64,000 nucleotides of DNA from IMG/VR virus record IMGVR_UViG_3300020037_001525, positions 1 through 64,000 of that record. One strand, given 5' to 3'. The translations under genes were made by a program, and so were the position numbers. Shown here piece by piece: positions 54,919 through 64,000 of the stretch (positions within the stretch are counted from its first letter, which is position 1; each line of letters opens with the position of its first letter). The notes under the pieces were generated by a model. The model did not search any database. It saw only the letters and a program-made list of their open reading frames with translations, and was not told the DNA's origin. This DNA is from a virus (Duplodnaviria; Caudoviricetes).

Positions 54919-55464
54919 CTATGAAGTGGTCTCAGTAGCAGTAGCAGAATTTGCGCCTGTTGTGTAATCTGTTGCTGTTGCTCTCACTCTGAACCAATAT
55001 TGTGTTGCGGTTGTTAAACCTGTAACCTGAAATACGCTTGCTGTTGATGTGAAGGCAACTACTCCTGTGGTGAATCCTACATTTGTTGCTCTTTCTATGA
55101 TATAGCCTGTTGCATTCACAACATCTGGCCAATCGCATGTTACTTTTGTTGCTGAATCAACTGTTGGTGTTACTGTTCCTACTGTTGGTAATGTCGGTGT
55201 ATATCGTGCAACTGCTGCTGGAACGGCTTCTGTGTTTGCAACAATTGATTTCAATACAAGCGAATTGTTAGTTGCAATTGTAACTAATTGTTGAAGAGTA
55301 CAAGTTAAACCTCTTCGCAAAGCCTGTGTTGCCATCTTCAACTCTTCATCAGTTCCCATGTCAATGATGTCAAGTATTGTGAAATTGTCAACACGCCCCA
55401 TCATTGCGTCTGTTCTCAATGTAAAGAGAACTGTTGTACTGTTTTTGAACTGAAAATCTGTCAT
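54919..55464 (-). CDS. fibronectin type III domain virion protein
   Basis: DWPDVVNATGYIIERAT...FQVTGLTTATQYWFRVRA. Confidence 0.8.
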   Translation of the reverse strand: MTDFQFKNSTTVLFTLRTDAMMGRVDNFTILDIIDMGTDEELKMATQALRRGLTCTLQQLVTIATNNSLVLKSIVANTEAVPAAVARYTPTLPTVGTVTPTVDSATKVTCDWPDVVNATGYIIERATNVGFTTGVVAFTSTASVFQVTGLTTATQYWFRVRATATDYTTGANSATATETTS

Positions 55465-55499: not shown

Positions 55500-55508
55500 T
55501 TATAACTG
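55500..55508 (-). promoter_or_regulatory. CAGNTATWA motif
   Basis: CAGTTATAA upstream of the Fn3 gene. Confidence 0.45.
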
Positions 55509-55522
55509 GGTTGCGGTTATCA

Positions 55523-57076
55523 TTACATGAAGCTTACTATGTCCCTCATGGATAATGTCGAATTATATAATACACGTCTTTTTACAGTAATTGGTTCTGT
55601 TTTCCATCCTACTTTCACCTTGAAGCTAATTTCTTCAACATCATACGATTTTGCCGCCATTTTATCATATATGTTGTTGCTTTTCACTTCTTCTTTGAAT
55701 GAACCAATTTTTTTAGTTGTTATATCAGTAGGTTCATAATTCTTATTGAAGAAGTTGTACAGATTGTTGTCATCTCCTATTGCCATAGCAAGATTCTTCA
55801 AATCTTCTTCATTGTACTTTGCATAGGAATATTCTGACTCCTTTTGTTTTTCTTTGAAAAACTTCTTTTTTGCATTGTCAGAACTAACTTTTGATAAAGA
55901 TTTTGAAAATTGTGACACTGAATATTCCCCACTTGGTTCTATTGGAACTTTTGTGTCATCCTCTGGCATCGTCTTTATTCTTGAGAATAAGCCTTGTTCG
56001 ATTGATTGCTTAGCAAAATCAATGTCAGAATCTGATAATACACTATCTCTTAATGTATACTCCTTGCCACCTATTGACATTGCTACCCTGCCGTATTCAT
56101 ATCTTTTATTGCCACTATGGTCATCTTTATTCAAATATCCATTGGCAATTCGGTCTGCCTCTACTTCTGTTGCCCCTTCTTCCAAAGCCTTAACATGAGC
56201 ATCCATTTGTTTGTTGCCTTGGCTATGTTGCAAGTTCCTCAATGACTTAGCATAGGTGTTCCCTGCTTCATCTTTGATATGAGCTGTACCAAATTTATCC
56301 CACTTAGCATCATGCTTTAAACCATGTATTTTGCCTGTTACCTGCTTACCTTTGTGTTCAAAGGATACATGGTCGCCATGTGTGAACTCATGCTTTGCTC
56401 CGTCATCATGATGTCGAACGTAAACTGTTTGTTGGACACCTGCTTTGTTTGTGATGATTTTCTTCTCTAAGTGACTAACATCTTTCATAGCTTTCTCAAA
56501 GTCATCTTCTGTGATTTCACCTGATTCTAATGCTTTGTTGATGTCTGTGTGAAACTGAAGTATTGAGTCTTCTGTGAAGACCTCATAATGTTCTGATTTG
56601 GATAACTTATCAATCATTTGCTCTACAGTGTGTTCTTCACTATCCTCACCTGTTTTGTCTTCAAATTCTCTTTTCAGAGCATCTTCAGTTAAATTTTCGT
56701 AATGCGATCTCTTATCATACCCTTCATCATCTTTGTTGTCTTCTTCGCTGTCCATCACATGAGCATCGTCGTACTCTTTATCATTGAGTTCTGATGCTTG
56801 TTCTCTTTGATATTTGCCATATTCTATGTGTCTGCCTACTTTATCATAATGCTTAGCTTTCTCTTCATGATCTTTCTTGGTCATGCCATGCTTGCTTACC
56901 TTCTGCCACTTGCCTTCAGCTACTTTCTTGTAGCCATTGTGGACTGTACCAATAGGGAATGATTTGCCCTTTTCCAAATCAGTTTCCACTGCCTTGTTCA
57001 TTTCTTCGGTTTGCTCTTCATCTTTGTTGATGAAATTGTTGAAAATTGCTTGTTTGCGGATATCGTTGATTGCCAT
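55523..57076 (-). CDS. modular putative head-cargo protein A (517 aa)
   Basis: Shared domain VFTED...TDINK|A...DDFEK|AMKDVSHLEKKIITNKAG...VYV, SH3-like module, unique C-terminus. Confidence 0.6.
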   Translation of the reverse strand: MAINDIRKQAIFNNFINKDEEQTEEMNKAVETDLEKGKSFPIGTVHNGYKKVAEGKWQKVSKHGMTKKDHEEKAKHYDKVGRHIEYGKYQREQASELNDKEYDDAHVMDSEEDNKDDEGYDKRSHYENLTEDALKREFEDKTGEDSEEHTVEQMIDKLSKSEHYEVFTEDSILQFHTDINKALESGEITEDDFEKAMKDVSHLEKKIITNKAGVQQTVYVRHHDDGAKHEFTHGDHVSFEHKGKQVTGKIHGLKHDAKWDKFGTAHIKDEAGNTYAKSLRNLQHSQGNKQMDAHVKALEEGATEVEADRIANGYLNKDDHSGNKRYEYGRVAMSIGGKEYTLRDSVLSDSDIDFAKQSIEQGLFSRIKTMPEDDTKVPIEPSGEYSVSQFSKSLSKVSSDNAKKKFFKEKQKESEYSYAKYNEEDLKNLAMAIGDDNNLYNFFNKNYEPTDITTKKIGSFKEEVKSNNIYDKMAAKSYDVEEISFKVKVGWKTEPITVKRRVLYNSTLSMRDIVSFM

Positions 57077-57096
57077 TGTTTCTTATTTTTGTTTTG

Positions 57097-57105
57097 TTAT
57101 ACCTG
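57097..57105 (-). promoter_or_regulatory. CAGNTATWA motif
   Basis: CAGGTATAA 20 nt upstream of the ATG at 57076. Confidence 0.45.
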
Positions 57106-57145
57106 TTTAAGATTAATGAGACTGTTTTCTCTTATCCATACCATC

Positions 57146-58582
57146 TTAATTGTTCTTGCTTGGTTTCTTAGCAAGTTTCTCTGCCATATCATAATGACCT
57201 TGAGCTGTTTCTGAATGTCTATTGGCTCTTTTAGGGTAATTGTTCATCATGGCTTTCACTGCATGTGCTGAATGAAATTGCGCTGCTTCTTTATGGTCTT
57301 GTGCTGTAAAACCATTGTAGTAATAATCATCTGCCTTGCGTTTCGCACTCACTCTCAATCCAGAAGTTGTTTCTCCTACATATCCTGGACCAGTTGGTAT
57401 AGGTTTTGATTCTGTATTCGTCCTCGTTGTACCCAACTTACCAGAACCTTTCAGGTTTGAAATTTGTCTGTTGGTTGCTTTCTCATTCTCCTCATTTTCT
57501 ATGCTATCACGCAATTCTTTTTGTGACTCTTCATGTGTTTGTGGTTTCTCCTTTGACAAATTATTCATGTGGGTTGTAGTCGTTGTCTTCAATCCATCAA
57601 GTCTAATTTTTCTCATGCTTCCCTTTAGTGCAGTAACCTTGCCTCTCCTTAGTTTACCACCATCATGCAACCAAACTTCTGAGCCAACTCCGTGTGGTAC
57701 ATCTGAATCTGGTTCATCATGCCCAGAAGCATCAAAGTCATGCTGTACAATAGCTTTCGATGGGTCAATTTTGTGCAATTCTTTTGTGGAAGGATGAACC
57801 CCCATCAAATTGCCTGTCTTCTTGTCATGACCAACAACATGAACTAAATCATGCTTGTAACCATTCACACTTTGTGGATGTTGCATCAATACTCTCTGAC
57901 CACGCTTCATCTGCACACCGAATTGGTCTTTTGTTCCTTGCTTCACATTATCGTGGTTGGCTGCGTGCTTTTTGATTTCTGATTTTAATTCTTCTGGCTT
58001 CATTTCTTCTTGTGTGTTTAATCTTGGTAAACCTCTGTCATCTTCAGAAGTATCTGGTGAAGAAGTTGCTGGTTTAGCTGTTTGCTCCAACTCCTTACCT
58101 TCTTCGTGGTGTTCTATACCTCTAAGAGACTTACTGTACGTATTGCCCTTGTCATCTTTGATGTGAGCTGTACCGAATTTATCATAAACCTCATGATGTT
58201 TGAGTTTCGTGATATGACCTACTTTCTTGATACCTTTATCTTCGAAAACAACTTTGTGTCCTTCGGAGAACTCATGCTTGTCACCGTTATCAGCATGTCT
58301 TGTATAGACTGTCTTCTGGTGACCATTTTTATCTGTAATGGTTTTCTTTTCTAAGTTCGCTATATTTCTCATACCTTTGTTGAACTCTGAAGCATCAATC
58401 AAATTATCCTGAAATGCTTTCGTAAGGTCTGTCTGGTATTGCTCCAAACCTTCTCTGGTATAGATTTCCACATGTTCATTTTGCTTTGAAACTTCTTTAT
58501 TTTCAACTGATTTCTCAAACTGGGATGCTATATTCTCAGCGATTTTCTGTCTTCTTTCTTGTAGTGATTGTGCTATGTTCAT
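57146..58582 (-). CDS. modular putative head-cargo protein B (478 aa)
   Basis: Shared domain IYTRE...TDLTK|A...SEFNK|GMRNIANLEKKTITDKNG...VYT; SH3-like modules; FTAQDH motif. Confidence 0.6.
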   Translation of the reverse strand: MNIAQSLQERRQKIAENIASQFEKSVENKEVSKQNEHVEIYTREGLEQYQTDLTKAFQDNLIDASEFNKGMRNIANLEKKTITDKNGHQKTVYTRHADNGDKHEFSEGHKVVFEDKGIKKVGHITKLKHHEVYDKFGTAHIKDDKGNTYSKSLRGIEHHEEGKELEQTAKPATSSPDTSEDDRGLPRLNTQEEMKPEELKSEIKKHAANHDNVKQGTKDQFGVQMKRGQRVLMQHPQSVNGYKHDLVHVVGHDKKTGNLMGVHPSTKELHKIDPSKAIVQHDFDASGHDEPDSDVPHGVGSEVWLHDGGKLRRGKVTALKGSMRKIRLDGLKTTTTTHMNNLSKEKPQTHEESQKELRDSIENEENEKATNRQISNLKGSGKLGTTRTNTESKPIPTGPGYVGETTSGLRVSAKRKADDYYYNGFTAQDHKEAAQFHSAHAVKAMMNNYPKRANRHSETAQGHYDMAEKLAKKPSKNN

Positions 58583-58615
58583 TGTATTTTGTTTTATTAT
58601 GATTGTTTATTTGTG

Positions 58616-59320
58616 TTAATTATAAACTCTTATTTCTATCATTGTTCTTGCAAGAATATCATCAGCTAATACATCTGATGAGTTGTATGTCTGTATTAGT
58701 AGAGCACTTGTTGATATGAATGTTATGTTAATAGTTGAGCCATCCATTGTTTTATAGATTGCATTGTTAGGAATAAACAAATTGTCCTCTATGAATTTGT
58801 TCGCTGAGTTCAATCTATACTCACCAACGTCATTTCTTGCGATACCTGTGATACCAATAGTATCTTCAAGAACCAATGCTGTTGGAGCAGCTGTTGCTGA
58901 TTGCGAGAGCATTGCTGTATAAGATTTGTATTGTACAGTATTAGCTATGTCAGCTAATATGATAGTCGCTATTTCTCTAATTGTGGTTGCTCCATAATCA
59001 CCACTATCAACTTCATCCAAATTCTCTTTTGTAAGATAATTCAACTCAAATACAACTCTGGTTGGATTTGGCATAGTTCTATCATTGTGCTTTATAATCA
59101 ATGAAGAGTTGAGATTGCCTTCGATTTCAGCTACGATATCTGTAAATGGCTGTATAAACGCTGCTAACACCAATGGCACATATGTTATCACCTGTGATGG
59201 TAGTATTGGATTGTGTGGTTCATATGAAATTGTTATATTCTCTAATGAATATACATTGATGACACCACTCCTATCAATTGTTATTGTTCTGTTCGTGTTA
59301 TTTACTGTTATACTTGACAT
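58616..59320 (-). CDS. putative virion structural protein (234 aa)
   Basis: C-terminal YKSYTAMLSQSATAAPTALVLEDTIG...IEIRVYN motif, of a type seen at phage fibre/appendage ends. Confidence 0.55.
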   Translation of the reverse strand: MSSITVNNTNRTITIDRSGVINVYSLENITISYEPHNPILPSQVITYVPLVLAAFIQPFTDIVAEIEGNLNSSLIIKHNDRTMPNPTRVVFELNYLTKENLDEVDSGDYGATTIREIATIILADIANTVQYKSYTAMLSQSATAAPTALVLEDTIGITGIARNDVGEYRLNSANKFIEDNLFIPNNAIYKTMDGSTINITFISTSALLIQTYNSSDVLADDILARTMIEIRVYN

Positions 59321-59345
59321 TTGTGAATTTTGTTTTTAGTATGTA

Positions 59346-61154
59346 TTAATCTTCTGTCTCGAATGCTTCTATGCCACCTAATCTTGTAAGCATCTTCTTA
59401 TATGTAGGTATAAGTGTTCCAATTTGTTTGTCCATGTGGCTATCTCCACCTACTTTCCACACATTGGTTGCCATATTATCCATGGCATGACGCCCAACTG
59501 AACTTATAAGGAATGCGCCTATCTCTCTGTCATTTAATCCTTTTTTACGGAGATAACCTTCTAATGCTGCATCACGCTCATCGTTTCTGTCATTGTGATA
59601 TATTGCACCATATCCACCTGCGTAATTTTGGAATGCTGGAGATTCAAACACTGCTTTGCTGTAACCGCCTTGTTGGATGCCGTCTCTGTGTTCCATTGTG
59701 GATTTGTTGTTCTCTGATGCAATTTTATCAATTTGTTGTTTATATGACAACCCTTCTTGATCGTCTAAATAAGAACCCTTGCCAACATGTCTTTCCCATC
59801 CAAGCTTATCTGCTGACTTATCGCCTATCAATTTTGCTCCCTTTAATCGGTCAACCAATTTAGCTTTAATAGAGCTTGCGTCTCTGTGGTCAGTGGCTGT
59901 GAAATCTTTGTGATTTTCATGATCAAATGCTATGTGAATGGGTTTACCAGAAGTTGTATTGCCTAACACTGCATCCCCACCCCTTTTCAGTGTTTTAGCA
60001 ATTTCAATATCATCATTTGCTGCCTTCATCTTAGCAGCTATTTCTGGAACTGCTGCCATTGGGTTTGTTTCTAATTTCACATCTTTCCACATTTTATCAA
60101 ATCTCACCCTGTTGATATGACTTAGTTGCGACACATGTTTAGCTACTTCAATCAGTTCATCATTTGATATATCCTTCTTCTGCATGATGCCGTTGGGATT
60201 GAATACTGTTGACTTTGCACTCCAACCTTCACCATCTTTCTTATATCCAAAGTGATTTGCTGCTTCTTCCCAATTATTCAACACCTTGCCATCGACCATG
60301 CTTCCGCTACTGTATCCGTGCTTCTCTGATATGTGATTCTTCATTTGGTGGTCAGACATCTTTGTATTGTTGCTTACATAGATTGTTCTCACAACACCGT
60401 TCTTGTCGGTCATTGTTTTCTTTGTAAGATGAGACAAATTCTTCATTCCTTTCTCAAAGTCTTCCTGAGATACTTCCTCAGACTCCATTGCTTTGTTGAG
60501 GTCTGTGATGTATTGTTGGATGGATTCTTCTGTGTAGAATTGGATGGATTTTTCAACTTTATTTCCTACGATGTTTGGTTGATTTGGTTTCTTTTTTATC
60601 AAGTGTATGTGAACTTCACCGTTGCTTCCAGAATCATCTCTTTTTGTTATGAGAGATTGATGGTCTGGGAACTTCTTACTGAATACGCTTCTTATGTTGT
60701 CATTATCTCCCACATTACCTTTTTTTGTCACTAATTTCAATTTATGACCACCGTGACCATCATGTTCGTGCGTATGAACTCCATACGAATGGAACTGGTC
60801 TCCATAATGGTCTTTATCTATGCTTTGAACAGCACGCTTTGCTTCATCTAAATTTCTGATATCTTTCTTTATAGGTTTTATGTTATCCGCATTGTGCACT
60901 TTTCCATTTGATGAATATCTTAAATCATTTGCTTCCTTATGTTCACCTCTTGTGAAATCTTTGTGCAAATCAGGAACAGCACTTTGATATATAGGCTTAC
61001 CACTTTTCGTATGTCCTATCACTTTACCACCTCTTGATCCCTCTGCTTTTTCAAGATCATTGTCTATACCAATAAATCTGTCTGCTATTCCTTTGCGAAA
61101 CGCTTGTTGTTTTGCTGCAATGGCTTGTTGCAATTGTTCTTGTATGTTTTTCAT
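59346..61154 (-). CDS. modular putative head-cargo protein C (602 aa)
   Basis: DLEK|AEGSRGGKVIGHTKSGKPIY, a second G.T.SGKPI copy, and the shared domain FYTEE...TDLNK|A...EDFEK|GMKNLSHL. Confidence 0.6.
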   Translation of the reverse strand: MKNIQEQLQQAIAAKQQAFRKGIADRFIGIDNDLEKAEGSRGGKVIGHTKSGKPIYQSAVPDLHKDFTRGEHKEANDLRYSSNGKVHNADNIKPIKKDIRNLDEAKRAVQSIDKDHYGDQFHSYGVHTHEHDGHGGHKLKLVTKKGNVGDNDNIRSVFSKKFPDHQSLITKRDDSGSNGEVHIHLIKKKPNQPNIVGNKVEKSIQFYTEESIQQYITDLNKAMESEEVSQEDFEKGMKNLSHLTKKTMTDKNGVVRTIYVSNNTKMSDHQMKNHISEKHGYSSGSMVDGKVLNNWEEAANHFGYKKDGEGWSAKSTVFNPNGIMQKKDISNDELIEVAKHVSQLSHINRVRFDKMWKDVKLETNPMAAVPEIAAKMKAANDDIEIAKTLKRGGDAVLGNTTSGKPIHIAFDHENHKDFTATDHRDASSIKAKLVDRLKGAKLIGDKSADKLGWERHVGKGSYLDDQEGLSYKQQIDKIASENNKSTMEHRDGIQQGGYSKAVFESPAFQNYAGGYGAIYHNDRNDERDAALEGYLRKKGLNDREIGAFLISSVGRHAMDNMATNVWKVGGDSHMDKQIGTLIPTYKKMLTRLGGIEAFETED

Positions 61155-61156
61155 CT

Positions 61157-63265
61157 TTATTGATTAAATTGTAATTTGTATTTTAATTTTGCTCCTATAC
61201 TGTACATCTCCTGTGCAAGATTTTCTACACCAATGAAACCCATCTCTTCAGCATAATTCTCAACGTCAAACGCTAAAACAATTATATGCTCAGCAACACC
61301 ATTTGGGTCTATACTATCACTGTAACTTTGTTTGTTATTCACCATAACAATCATGGTGTTGAACTTATCCTTGCCGACAAGCCCAAGAAGTTGTTCAGCT
61401 ATTGTATCTGTAAGAGAATCAAACTCTGATAGTGCCTCTCCAAATGCTTCATGTATCGGTTCACTTGCAGTCTTCAAGTGCACCCATTTAAGCCATACTT
61501 CCGTTTCATGCATTCTTGATATCAATGTAGACAATGTATAATCATCAGTGCTATCTCTTTCAACCTCTACTACTGGCATTTCTTTAATGTAATCTTCTCC
61601 ATTATCACCGACATCAACTCCTAAGTCTCCTAATGCTTTGATGATTTCATTGCTGTTAGATTTTGAAAATAACACCATGTCCTTAGCATCATGAACCCAA
61701 TCAACTCCATCTTCTTTGGCACCATGTATAATATCAAGAAGACTTCCAACTGTACGAATATTCAAATCATTCGTTTTGTTTTTATACTTGTCAAGGAAAT
61801 CAATGGCATCTTTCAAATCTGCTTGGTCGTACTTGATATCCTTGCCATCAGAGCCTTGAAACTTGATGTTATTGTATTCTTTGGTTTCAGGGTGTTGTGC
61901 TATATGTCGAATACGTTGTATTGTCTCGTCTGGAGTCATCGTCATATCAACCCTCAAAGACCTTGATTTCAATGGTTGTGGCACTTTATTCGGTGGTAGG
62001 TTTGATATAAAAACTGCTCTACCATTGAAATTAAACCTGTTTGGTATTGGTTGCCCAAAGCTATCTTTCAATGGTCTCTGTGACGCATAAGCCACTGTTC
62101 CATCTCCTGAAGTATCTAATGCACCTTTCCACAAACCTTCATCTGTGTCTGTTATGGCAGTATCACAGTCATCAATCATCAATATCTTACCATTGTGTTC
62201 ATACATTGCCTGATATAATCCAGCTGTAGTCGCTTTACCTGTTATCTTTACATAATCATAATCATCACTACCCACTTCCATACCTTCTTTGAATTCACGC
62301 TTACCAAGTTTCTTCAATTCTTGTTGAACAGTGTATGTCTTGCCAACCCCACCTGTTCCGTATGATATTACAGATTTCATGCCACCCTTGCCAGAAGCCA
62401 CAGAACGCACAAATCTTGCAAACGTATCAAAACGTCTGTTAATATCTCCTCTGCCTTCCTCTGCTTCATCTGCTTTCTTCTCACCAACTATCTTGTCTGC
62501 TGCTGCGTCTGCATCCAGTGGATTGTCCTTGTCTTTTTCTTCAGATTCTCCATCTTTCTTGTCACCTCTACTTTCAAGTTCCTTTTCAGCTATTTTCTTG
62601 ATGTTTTCATCTTTTGTGGTCTTGATAGTGTTCTCTAAGCCACCTCTCGATGCTTTCTTAGCGAAATTTTGTAAATCTTCTGGAGAGTGTTTTGGTTCTT
62701 CCTGTTTCTTACTACCTTCTCCATGAGGACTATCGAACTGATGTGGATGCTTGTTGATTGTCTGTCCACCATGTTCTTTATCAAGTTTAATTGCATATTC
62801 TCCTGTTTTGCCAACGCTACCAACAGTTCCTGTTACTTTGCTTCCCTTATGTTCAAGTTCTACCTTAGAACCATGTTCTGCGTGTTCTCGGTTGCCTTTG
62901 TTTGGGTCAACCCAACGATGCATCATCTTACCATTAACATTCACTTCTTTCAAGACAAGATGTGAAGTATTGAGTTTGCCACCTTTCTCAAAGTAATCAT
63001 CATCTTCAAATGATTTACTAACAATATCACACAAATCGTTGACTTGGTGCATGTGGTCTTCGTGGTAGTTCTGCATAAACTCCTTCACTGATTCTTTGCT
63101 ACCGTAATGGCTGTCTTTTTCTCCATCTTCTGTCATCCAATCATGATATTCCTTCTTCAATTGTTTAACATCAATATCTTCACCTTTTTGTAAATTATTA
63201 TCAATAAAAGATGACGCTATACGTTGCGCCTTACTGTCCCCAATATTAAAGTTTGTCAGATTCAT
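61157..63265 (-). CDS. modular putative head-cargo polyprotein D: SH3-like + AAA ATPase + Dps/ferritin-like domain
   Basis: YFEK|G...SHL; YGTGGVGKT Walker A, LMIDDCD Walker B, ISN, SRS; VHL...IHEAFGE....DSLTDTIAEQLLG. Confidence 0.75.
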   Translation of the reverse strand: MNLTNFNIGDSKAQRIASSFIDNNLQKGEDIDVKQLKKEYHDWMTEDGEKDSHYGSKESVKEFMQNYHEDHMHQVNDLCDIVSKSFEDDDYFEKGGKLNTSHLVLKEVNVNGKMMHRWVDPNKGNREHAEHGSKVELEHKGSKVTGTVGSVGKTGEYAIKLDKEHGGQTINKHPHQFDSPHGEGSKKQEEPKHSPEDLQNFAKKASRGGLENTIKTTKDENIKKIAEKELESRGDKKDGESEEKDKDNPLDADAAADKIVGEKKADEAEEGRGDINRRFDTFARFVRSVASGKGGMKSVISYGTGGVGKTYTVQQELKKLGKREFKEGMEVGSDDYDYVKITGKATTAGLYQAMYEHNGKILMIDDCDTAITDTDEGLWKGALDTSGDGTVAYASQRPLKDSFGQPIPNRFNFNGRAVFISNLPPNKVPQPLKSRSLRVDMTMTPDETIQRIRHIAQHPETKEYNNIKFQGSDGKDIKYDQADLKDAIDFLDKYKNKTNDLNIRTVGSLLDIIHGAKEDGVDWVHDAKDMVLFSKSNSNEIIKALGDLGVDVGDNGEDYIKEMPVVEVERDSTDDYTLSTLISRMHETEVWLKWVHLKTASEPIHEAFGEALSEFDSLTDTIAEQLLGLVGKDKFNTMIVMVNNKQSYSDSIDPNGVAEHIIVLAFDVENYAEEMGFIGVENLAQEMYSIGAKLKYKLQFNQ

Positions 63266-63521
63266 TGTTTAATTTTTGTATAAATACTGTGAATAATTTT
63301 ACTCCATGTTCATTTGTAACTACACTCTTGTTCATTCTATGACACTCTAACAAAGCTTCTCTGTATTCATTGCTATTAATCTCATCATCATCATACGATT
63401 TCTTCAAATCTTCATTGTATCTTGTCATATCCTTTTGAGTGAAAACAGCAATCTCACCAGCCTTCATCTGTTCATTGAGAAGATTGATGGTTATTTCTTT
63501 GCTATCACTTAATTCTGCCAT
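63246..63521 (-). CDS. stand-alone copy of the cargo-array shared domain (91 aa)
   Basis: VFTQKDMTRYNEDLKK|SYDDDEINSNEYREALLECHRMNKSVVTNEHG...VF. Confidence 0.6.
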   Translation of the reverse strand: MAELSDSKEITINLLNEQMKAGEIAVFTQKDMTRYNEDLKKSYDDDEINSNEYREALLECHRMNKSVVTNEHGVKLFTVFIQKLNNESDKL

Positions 63522-63538: not shown

Positions 63539-63548
63539 TTAATAGCTG
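63539..63548 (-). promoter_or_regulatory. CAGNTATWA motif heading the cargo array
   Basis: CAGCTATTAA 17 nt upstream of the ATG at 63521. Confidence 0.45.
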
Positions 63549-63553
63549 TTTCA

Positions 63554-64000
63554 TCAAAACACAAATTCTGATAAACTTCTATCAACGACATTGTTAACGA
63601 TTGTATCATCGTCTGTATTATCGATTGCTTGCTGTGCAAGGTTATGCATCTTTATACCTTTATGTATCCATGAACTTGGGTCAGATAAAGCACTTACTGT
63701 TCTGAAACTGTTGTACGTTGATTGTTGTGCTCCGCTTGGGAATGTCTTGAGACTTCTTACAATACCTTCATATATTGAAGACTTATGAACATAAGCATCA
63801 AAGGTCTTGCCTAAATTATTTGATGTTTCTGCTCTGGTCTTCTTTTGCAGAAATTCGACTGCCAAATCCTTGAAACCTATTCCTTCATTATTTCCTTTTG
63901 TCTTCAAAATCGCATAGATTTCTGGTGGAAGAACGCCAGAAAAAATCTCATTCTCACCGATTGCTCCTGTTGTTGCCCACCTGAATGGTATGCTTATGTA
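63554..64000 (-). CDS. virion morphogenesis / head-tail connector protein, partial (5' end beyond the window)
   Basis: Frame is open to the window edge: ISIPFRWAT.GA.GE.EIFSG..P..IY; C-terminal YNSFRTVS..SDP.SWIH.G. Confidence 0.6.
   Translation of the reverse strand, partial: YISIPFRWATTGAIGENEIFSGVLPPEIYAILKTKGNNEGIGFKDLAVEFLQKKTRAETSNNLGKTFDAYVHKSSIYEGIVRSLKTFPSGAQQSTYNSFRTVSALSDPSSWIHKGIKMHNLAQQAIDNTDDDTIVNNVVDRSLSEFVF

Follow-up and report, generated by a model that had tools for sequence, protein, structure and literature searches.

Five paralogous, modular proteins encoded side by side in an uncultured phage (IMG/VR record IMGVR_UViG_3300020037_001525) are probably loaded into the capsid, trimmed by the capsid protease and injected into the host, since a leader, a small domain and a cutting signal of the capsid protease are common to their genes. 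We infer packaging, cleavage, injection and the identity of the address tag from the sequence, and put the probability that the array proteins are head cargo, processed by that protease and injected with the DNA, at roughly 0.55. The window analysed comprises bases 1-64000 of the 89,937-bp record. The genes of the array are all encoded on the minus strand. Its members are A, B, D, E and F; C lies among them without belonging to them.

63246-63521, minus strand: F, 91 amino acids (aa); short leader and diverged shared domain with nothing further (the 'solo' form), profile match at residues 24-83
61157-63265, minus strand: E, 702 aa; leader 1-27, half-domain and SH3-like part at about 88-170, AAA+ ATPase 247-531, linker, Dps-like end 578-700
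59346-61154, minus strand: D, 602 aa; leader helix 1-36, G.T.SGKPI / FT..H module present twice, shared domain 204-262, unrelated C-terminus
58616-59320, minus strand: C, 234 aa; interspersed non-member without leader or motif, acidic and low in lysine
57146-58582, minus strand: B, 478 aa; leader helix 3-27, shared domain 38-96, three SH3/KOW/Tudor-like barrels, C-terminal G.T.SG / FT..DH..A module
55523-57076, minus strand: A, 517 aa; leader 1-36, small N-terminal module, K160|S, shared domain 164-222, SH3-like barrel 223-290, unrelated C-terminus

The proposal depends on the meaning of a short motif, [LIVMF]-x-K|[SGA] (hxK|[SGA] below), which is credible, from sequence comparison, as the place where the prohead protease cuts. 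In the protease-scaffold fusion of this phage it occurs 21 times, in the scaffold half of the protein, compared with 2.8 expected from shuffles. The residue after [LIVMF]xK is S, G or A in 68% of cases there and in 14% of cases in the remaining proteome, and control motifs (a Glu, Asp or Arg version, or the reversed order) occur 0-3 times each. For finer comparison a site matrix of ten positions was trained on 97 sites from other phages only, with a score of at least 9 counted as strong. By this measure the protease-scaffold has 11 strong sites, and the motif of the capsid protein, at K30|A31, scores 12.4. A check for the same Lys|[ASG] site in the capsid and scaffold proteins, which the sequence-only reading had proposed, thus gave a positive answer. 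The N-terminal site of the capsid protein is kept in Chryseobacterium phage MA9V-3, Bacteroides phage DAC16, contigs L006, L008, L012 and L013, and the SPO1-like phage CampHawk. Scaffolds and proteases of other phages are enriched for the motif as well, including those of contigs L006, L012, L013, L022 and L024; motif copies in cultured phages are as follows.

MA9V-3 protease-scaffold: 21 found, 2.6 expected
CampHawk scaffold: 11 found, 1.5 expected
CampHawk protease: 8 found, 1.7 expected
Staphylococcus phage G1 scaffold: 7 found, 1.4 expected
Staphylococcus phage G1 protease: 6 found, 1.6 expected

A structure gives the cut itself some support. The Kayvirus capsid chain 9row_B in the PDB has 439 residues, which correspond to residues 25-463 of the phage G1 protein; residues 22-25 of the latter read V-V-K|S, and the Kayvirus chain therefore starts after V-V-K24. 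This supports the statement in the sequence-only reading that Herelleviridae capsid proteins are matured at a Lys|Ser bond, a cleavage site stated in no open paper found by our literature searches. The protease of phage phi12 likewise cleaves after Lys or Arg (PMC8569155).

Within the array the motif is found at leader ends (A28, A36, B24, D36, E27), directly before the shared domain (A160, D202) and at module borders (E84/E94, E535/E543, A392). All ten of the x-x-K|[ASG] motifs that the sequence-only reading had listed are present, after short leaders and at module boundaries as had been said. This evidence is positional rather than numerical, because raw counts are only mildly raised (23 compared with 12 expected) and half of the excess falls within the conserved domain. 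The argument that raw motif counts alone prove processing was tried and rejected, since outside the domain they are near expectation. With the matrix, six strong sites lie outside the domain in 2,122 aa of array, compared with 0.7 expected from the eight strong sites in 24,173 aa of remaining proteome (Poisson 9e-5). The six are B24, D36, A28, A36, E27 and E84, and the leader ends among them rank with the best matrix sites genome-wide. The N-termini of B, D, A and E thus end, at B24, D36, A28/36 and E27, in the consensus that also marks the capsid protein and scaffold, each with a score of at least 9, as would be expected of propeptides. The leaders themselves are as follows.

63185-63265, minus strand: leader of E, residues 1-27; site K27|G, weak leader-profile match
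61047-61154, minus strand: leader of D, residues 1-36; sites K21|G and K36|A, weak leader-profile match
58511-58582, minus strand: leader of B, residues 1-24; ends in FEK24|S with a site score of 10.7, helix followed by disorder
56969-57076, minus strand: leader of A, residues 1-36; sites K28|A and K36|G, scores 10.0 and 9.2

A leader profile made from proteins of other phages, those of the window being excluded, matches residues 1-32 of B with an E-value of 1.8e-5 and residues 3-32 of A with 0.004; the matches to D and E are weak.

The second element common to the array is a domain of 59 aa, predicted to consist of two helices and a beta-hairpin. Model confidence is given here as the predicted local distance difference test score (pLDDT).

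63273-63452, minus strand: diverged copy of F; profile match
62912-63004, minus strand: half-copy of E at about residues 88-118, a degenerate form of the second half of the domain; seen only in an uncorrected A-E alignment
60369-60545, minus strand: copy of D; profile match
58295-58471, minus strand: copy of B; in the model helices 43-58 and 64-75 and hairpin 77-95, pLDDT 84-95
56411-56587, minus strand: copy of A; helix, helix, beta-hairpin

BLASTP joins A to B at 2e-36 (150 aa, the SH3-like part included), A to D at 2e-16, B to D at 4e-13 and A to F at 8e-6. Together with the profile matches this places the domain in all four proteins, at most a few bases off the positions given by the sequence-only reading, and a profile of the four copies run over the 89.9-kb genome finds no further copy. 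The same reading had assigned the second half of the domain to the 702-aa protein E, and here the support is divided: an A-E alignment made without composition correction shows it, at 27% identity over 169 aa, while the four-copy profile misses it, so that the copy is weak. The SH3-like part of E is matched by a profile with an E-value of 0.005.

The remaining modules are best seen in the AlphaFold model of B (mean pLDDT 73.6), in which the leader helix ends at FEK24|S and gives way to disorder. Further disorder is predicted in the linkers (25-37, 166-192, 283-293 and 377-394), and the C-terminal module is a sheet with helices. Foldseek matches the three barrels to the KOW repeats of Spt5 and the Tudor repeats of SETDB1, and so upholds the label 'SH3-like' that they had been given from sequence. 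The model of D is poor overall (pLDDT 44.7) and cannot be used to map D's modules, while its leader helix (2-34) and domain (206-261) are visible. The G.T.SG and FT..DH..A modules described earlier were recovered in B and D, and the C-termini are indeed unrelated, with no mutual similarity found. The homologues P0002-P0010 have the same modules in different order. E may join disparate activities in one chain: an AAA+ ATPase (phrog_1250, 2.8e-34), a linker with two sites (K535|S and K543|A), and a weakly matched Dps-like, DUF5856-type C-terminus (phrog_858, 7e-4), the Pfam matches to AAA and DUF5856 being below cutoff. A, B and D have only barrels and unassigned modules. As to charge, what lies N-terminal of the in-domain sites is acidic (isoelectric point, pI, 4.1-4.8), and what is left of B and D is basic (pI 9.2-9.5) and rich in His. 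Genes F and E share the 20 bases 63246-63265, read in different frames at the end of the one and the start of the other; E has a leader of its own, so an F-E fusion need not be invoked.

Database searches contribute little else. Pfam, PHROGs and NCBIfam give nothing usable on A, B, C, D and F, the sole trace being a weak match of phrog_6449 to the domain of D; an ESM Atlas search with F is equally unproductive, and neither megablast of the region nor tblastn of D matches any of 50,697 phage records. C was ruled out as a member of the array. It is unrelated to the others, has no leader and 0 motif copies, is acidic (pI 4.45) and is rich in Asn, Thr and Ile. It matches no family in Pfam, PHROGs or NCBIfam, and its leads in the ESM Atlas, to H-type lectin and to fibre-tip-like phage proteins, are no more than weak.

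Relatives of the domain were collected by word-based and exhaustive profile searches at E-values up to 1e-3. The domain is matched by no Pfam or NCBIfam entry, and occurs in 222 protein clusters with members 61-2,258 aa long. The first domain starts at residue 20-50 in 89 of 155 proteins, and in 72 of 86 leader-bearing proteins the motif ends no more than 16 residues before the domain (about 7% expected); since these features are homologous, such site counts among relatives show conservation and not independent events. The second half of the domain, a helix and hairpin with the pattern KK.ITNK.G..TVYV, recurs in two to four copies inside giant proteins. There the motif stands just upstream of 27 of 32 hairpin-only units, at variable spacing, and other modules of the homologues also have it immediately before them.

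The profile search had been suggested by the sequence-only reading as a way to look for diversity of payloads, and the payloads are very diverse. Partners in the same chain include Phage_lysozyme, ART-PolyVal, InPase, PBECR3, RadC, LPD1, zeta toxin and DUF5856; PIN, KorA and VapB-like domains; and N6_Mtase/Eco57I with an SNF2 helicase, an architecture like that of DarB. Topoisom_I is the partner in three members, and P0056 is built as hairpin-topoisomerase-hairpin. Domain-bearing genes adjoin portal genes in other phages, and in one case the domain's partner is a lambda-type portal. This fusion, of 1,889 aa (L023:6060-11729), carries hairpin units without a preceding Lys site, and in this single case no protease of the phrog_1028 type is visible on the contig, which is 14 kb long; that such units go with a different protease is a conjecture which the neighbouring 380-aa gene did not bear out. 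On contig L011 (7348-23106) four consecutive giant genes encode proteins of 1,919, 1,806, 711 and more than 675 aa, at least three of which have a short leader at the start, with Lys|Ala and a unit resembling the hairpin; ART-PolyVal/InPase/PBECR3 and DarB-like architectures are among them. Where a protease is visible on a contig that bears the unit (this phage, L006, L012, L013, L022 and L024), it is always related to phrog_1028 or phrog_3698, and both it and the scaffold are rich in the motif.

Cultured phages have so far yielded no carrier of the domain: tblastn of two hairpin-bearing proteins against them returned payload domains only, and MA9V-3 and DAC16 are without it. Two proteins encoded upstream of the portal gene of MA9V-3 are of note. 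One, of 148 aa (L009:5683-6129), has hxK|S three times within residues 1-40; the other, of 545 aa (L009:3379-5016), is an AAA protein 49% identical to the ATPase of E, with a 7-residue leader ending in Lys|Ala.

On these observations the following course of events can be proposed. A, B, D, E and probably F would be late proteins that are incorporated into the prohead, each starting with an amphipathic leader helix of 25-35 residues that ends in [LIVMF]-x-K|[SGA]. The leader, the acidic two-helix half of the 59-aa domain, or both, would co-assemble with the scaffold core. Once activated, the protease would remove the leaders and cut some of the module borders (A160, D202, E84/94 and E535/543), freeing acidic peptides, while the beta-hairpin and downstream modules would stay in the head. 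The modules retained would be the SH3/KOW-like barrels, the AAA+ ATPase, the Dps-like domain and the unassigned ends, basic in B and D, and the trimmed proteins would enter the host along with the DNA. The sequence-only reading had envisaged a common chassis for capsid targeting and processing with interchangeable payloads. The diversity of the partners and the sites in the head proteins agree with this, but the choice of the 57-aa domain as the targeting chassis does not stand by itself, as the leader helix is separate, conserved and an equally good candidate.

A more general form of the proposal is possible though doubtful: that a portable load-and-release tag is made up of the leader, hxK|[SGA] and the helix-beta-hairpin unit, and that it is read by the phrog_1028-type protease-scaffold of a whole capsid lineage. 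If so, the prohead would take up any bearer of the tag and release it by cleavage, be it a solo of 60 aa, a polyvalent giant of 2,000 aa or even the portal fusion; the loading and processing of polyvalent proteins that have no peptidase of their own would be explained, cargo would be predictable from sequence in this capsid lineage, and the tag could be transferred to load chosen proteins into phage heads.

The setting of the array is that of a virion module. Along the direction of transcription (minus strand), the genes for the portal, a MuF-like protein of 300 aa, a topoisomerase-IB-like protein of 868 aa, the protease-scaffold fusion of 568 aa and the capsid protein of 495 aa follow one another. 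They are succeeded by adaptor-like, NUDIX and virion genes and a 626-aa neck gene split by an intein, then by F, E, D, C, B and A, and after these by genes of 181 (FN3), 243 and 77 aa, the tail sheath and the tail tube. The protease-scaffold belongs to phrog_1028 (3.1e-44) and is recognised by PHROGs only, Pfam and PDB sequence searches missing it. The capsid protein (phrog_752, 1.1e-74) is of Herelleviridae type and is matched by 750 phage records, for the most part Herelleviridae. As its closest cultured relatives are those of DAC16 (44%) and MA9V-3 (40%), the host is probably a member of the Bacteroidota. In both of these phages the orthologues of the 626-aa and 243-aa genes are direct neighbours, so that the array amounts to 8.6 kb inserted where the two meet; in the related contig L008 this place is occupied by another set of genes of the kind. 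For the 243-aa gene, 'tail terminator' is a tentative label taken from the sequence-only reading. The promoter-like motif CAGNTATWA occurs 16 times in the window (6.8 expected) and also precedes the structural genes. Copies of it lie upstream of the array, where late-type motifs had been reported earlier.

record 75999-77663, minus strand: portal
record 69600-71306, minus strand: protease-scaffold fusion, protease domain at residues 1 to about 165
record 68053-69540, minus strand: capsid protein
63540-63548, minus strand: CAGNTATWA promoter-like motif, upstream of F
57097-57105, minus strand: CAGNTATWA promoter-like motif, before A
55500-55508, minus strand: CAGNTATWA promoter-like motif, before the 181-aa gene

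Several neighbours deserve a remark of their own. The 868-aa topoisomerase-IB-like protein (record 71337-73943), whose gene stands between the MuF-like gene and the protease, contains 9 motif copies compared with 3.6 expected. Five of these score high, and the N-terminus of the protein resembles, by eye, a degenerate hairpin unit; it is probably a further head cargo. A NUDIX hydrolase gene lies among the head-completion genes (record 66235-66723), and its 328-aa orthologue in L008 opens with a leader-like sequence ending in Lys|Ala. That the NUDIX protein carries the same leader was considered and rejected, the leader profile not being significant on this phage's copy. The 626-aa neck protein (window 63554-64000, continuing to record 65434) is orthologous to proteins of 243-270 aa in L008, MA9V-3 and DAC16, and contains an intein with a DUF559/HNH-type endonuclease, which splits it from about residue 95-110 to residue 461. 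The 181-aa protein (window 54919-55464) has a C-terminal FN3-like domain and an L008 orthologue 46% identical to it, and may be an external decoration from the same insertion hot spot.

Other explanations of the array share some of this evidence. Its products could be auxiliary proteins of the core or scaffold type, degraded in the prohead by the protease to make room for DNA and without a role in the host after injection. The scaffold-like sites, a 41% identity over 39 aa between one linker of E and a scaffold segment, the acidic helical regions, the solo domain proteins without payload and the motif copies inside the domain would all suit such a function. It is nevertheless unlikely, as the enzymes of the homologues (lysozyme, ART, topoisomerase, methylase-helicase and zeta toxin) are sensible only in a host, about 400 residues of B have no predicted site, and the variable, shuffled content is typical of conflict genes. 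Payloads that act inside cells, protease sites at leader ends, high charge and long disordered linkers speak against external, unprocessed accessory proteins of the neck or collar, whether decoration or whisker-like, for which the domain would serve as a neck attachment module; moreover, elsewhere the domain genes adjoin portal, MuF or topoisomerase genes or are fused to the portal. Such a role is very improbable, even though the array separates a conserved pair of neck/tail genes that adjoin each other in MA9V-3 and DAC16, has FN3 and lectin-like neighbours and encodes tandem small beta-barrels.

The array might also encode late proteins that never enter the virion and that bind nucleic acid or counter defences in the producing cell, with Lys|[SGA] arising from a composition rich in Lys, Glu and Ser and from shared ancestry. 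The weak enrichment of raw counts outside the domain, the capacity for nucleic acid binding that the KOW/Tudor-like barrels and basic hairpin could have, and AAA homologues such as T4-type nrdC.10, which are not known virion proteins, are in keeping with this. We give it little credence, since the positional signal at leader ends persists with a matrix from other phages, the domain is tied to portal, MuF-type and polyvalent-protein domains, and the promoter-like motifs are shared with structural genes. The head-cargo reading has difficulties of its own. Outside the domain the array has about 14 motif copies where about 11 are expected, the two in-domain copies fall in confidently predicted helices and are perhaps structural, and the homologous sites of relatives are not independent observations. 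The disordered linkers of B contain no site; B is therefore not a polyprotein and would lose its leader only. Some proteins consist of the domain alone, F and many matches shorter than 130 aa among them, which suggests that it is functional in its own right. In phage DAC16 the AAA and zeta modules are ordinary small genes, and the array lies in a neck/tail insertion hot spot beside external-looking FN3 and lectin-like genes. All of these points count against cargo that is packaged, processed and injected.

Proteins that are packaged and injected set the first minutes of an infection, in anti-restriction, take-over of the host and protection of the DNA. Polyvalent proteins have been predicted to be such cargo since 2017. 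The present locus is a compact, testable case, with a defined leader, a 59-aa domain and a motif tied to one protease family.

Polyvalent proteins are the nearest known kind, and the array proteins may be regarded as small, split versions of them. As described by Iyer, Burroughs, Anand, de Souza and Aravind in 2017 (PMC5512222), they occur in phages and conjugative elements, are modular and shuffled, are encoded beside head genes and are predicted to be packaged and injected. The array too lies among virion genes, flanked by head-completion and tail-sheath genes with promoter-like motifs in common, and relatives of its domain or hairpin carry ART-PolyVal, InPase, PBECR3, RadC, LPD1, methylase-helicase, zeta toxin and portal domains. 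In Pfam searches at E-values up to 0.1, A, B, D, E and F match none of the signature domains of the class (MuF, MPTase, ART-PolyVal, PBECR, LPDs and others), and no MuF, MPTase or LPD match turned up among the window's proteins; such domains occur only in remote relatives linked to the array by the 59-aa domain. In contrast to polyvalent proteins, the proposed cargo of the array is spread over five mid-sized genes with a leader apiece, and its predicted processor is the prohead protease acting at hxK|[SGA] rather than a zincin peptidase (MPTase), the main route favoured by Iyer et al. (PMC5512222). Text searches of that paper find no mention of the leader or the hairpin unit.

By mechanism the array resembles the internal proteins IPI-III and Alt of phage T4, whose capsid-targeting sequence is removed by the prohead protease gp21 (PMC9026906). 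In both an N-terminal address peptide, a putative one in the array, ends in the consensus of a head protease, which is also present in the capsid protein and scaffold, and the injection of processed proteins with the DNA, as in T4, is likewise proposed here. The protease lineage differs, with predicted cleavage after Lys instead of Glu, and the array leaders are longer and accompanied by an extra conserved domain. The likeness is one of mechanism only, there being no PHROG, Pfam or NCBIfam match to IP or Alt in the array. In the phiKZ-like giant phage SPN3US the propeptides of paralogous head proteins are cut by the prohead protease at A-x-E, with 14 such sites in 9 proteins identified by mass spectrometry (PMC10052503, PMC7411985). 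The ejection or inner-body proteins of phiKZ-like phages are, like the array proteins, paralogous and have N-terminal propeptides with several sites of one motif; the motif and protease family are different from ours, the genome here is of about 90-100 kb, and processing here is predicted. The acidic N-terminal pieces and basic remainders of B and D match the propeptide logic of T4 and phiKZ-like phages (PMC9026906, PMC10052503). DarA, DarB and DdrB of the phage P1 Dar system are also packaged in the head, partly processed and accompany the DNA (PMC9024508, PMC5512222), as is proposed here for the array proteins. P1 has a different capsid lineage from this phage, and no Dar homologue was found in the window; DarB-like methylase-helicase giants with the hairpin unit occur in L013, L011 and L022.

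The head module itself is of the Herelleviridae kind, with the same families of capsid protein (phrog_752) and protease (phrog_1028), hxK|[SA] near capsid residue 23-30 and an equally site-rich scaffold. To our knowledge no such cargo array has been described for Herelleviridae. Polyvalent and internal head proteins with propeptides cut by a protease are thus a kind already known. What is new is the unannotated domain with its leader and their wide distribution, the link of both to one protease family with a structurally supported cut, and the split array at a hot spot in the neck module.

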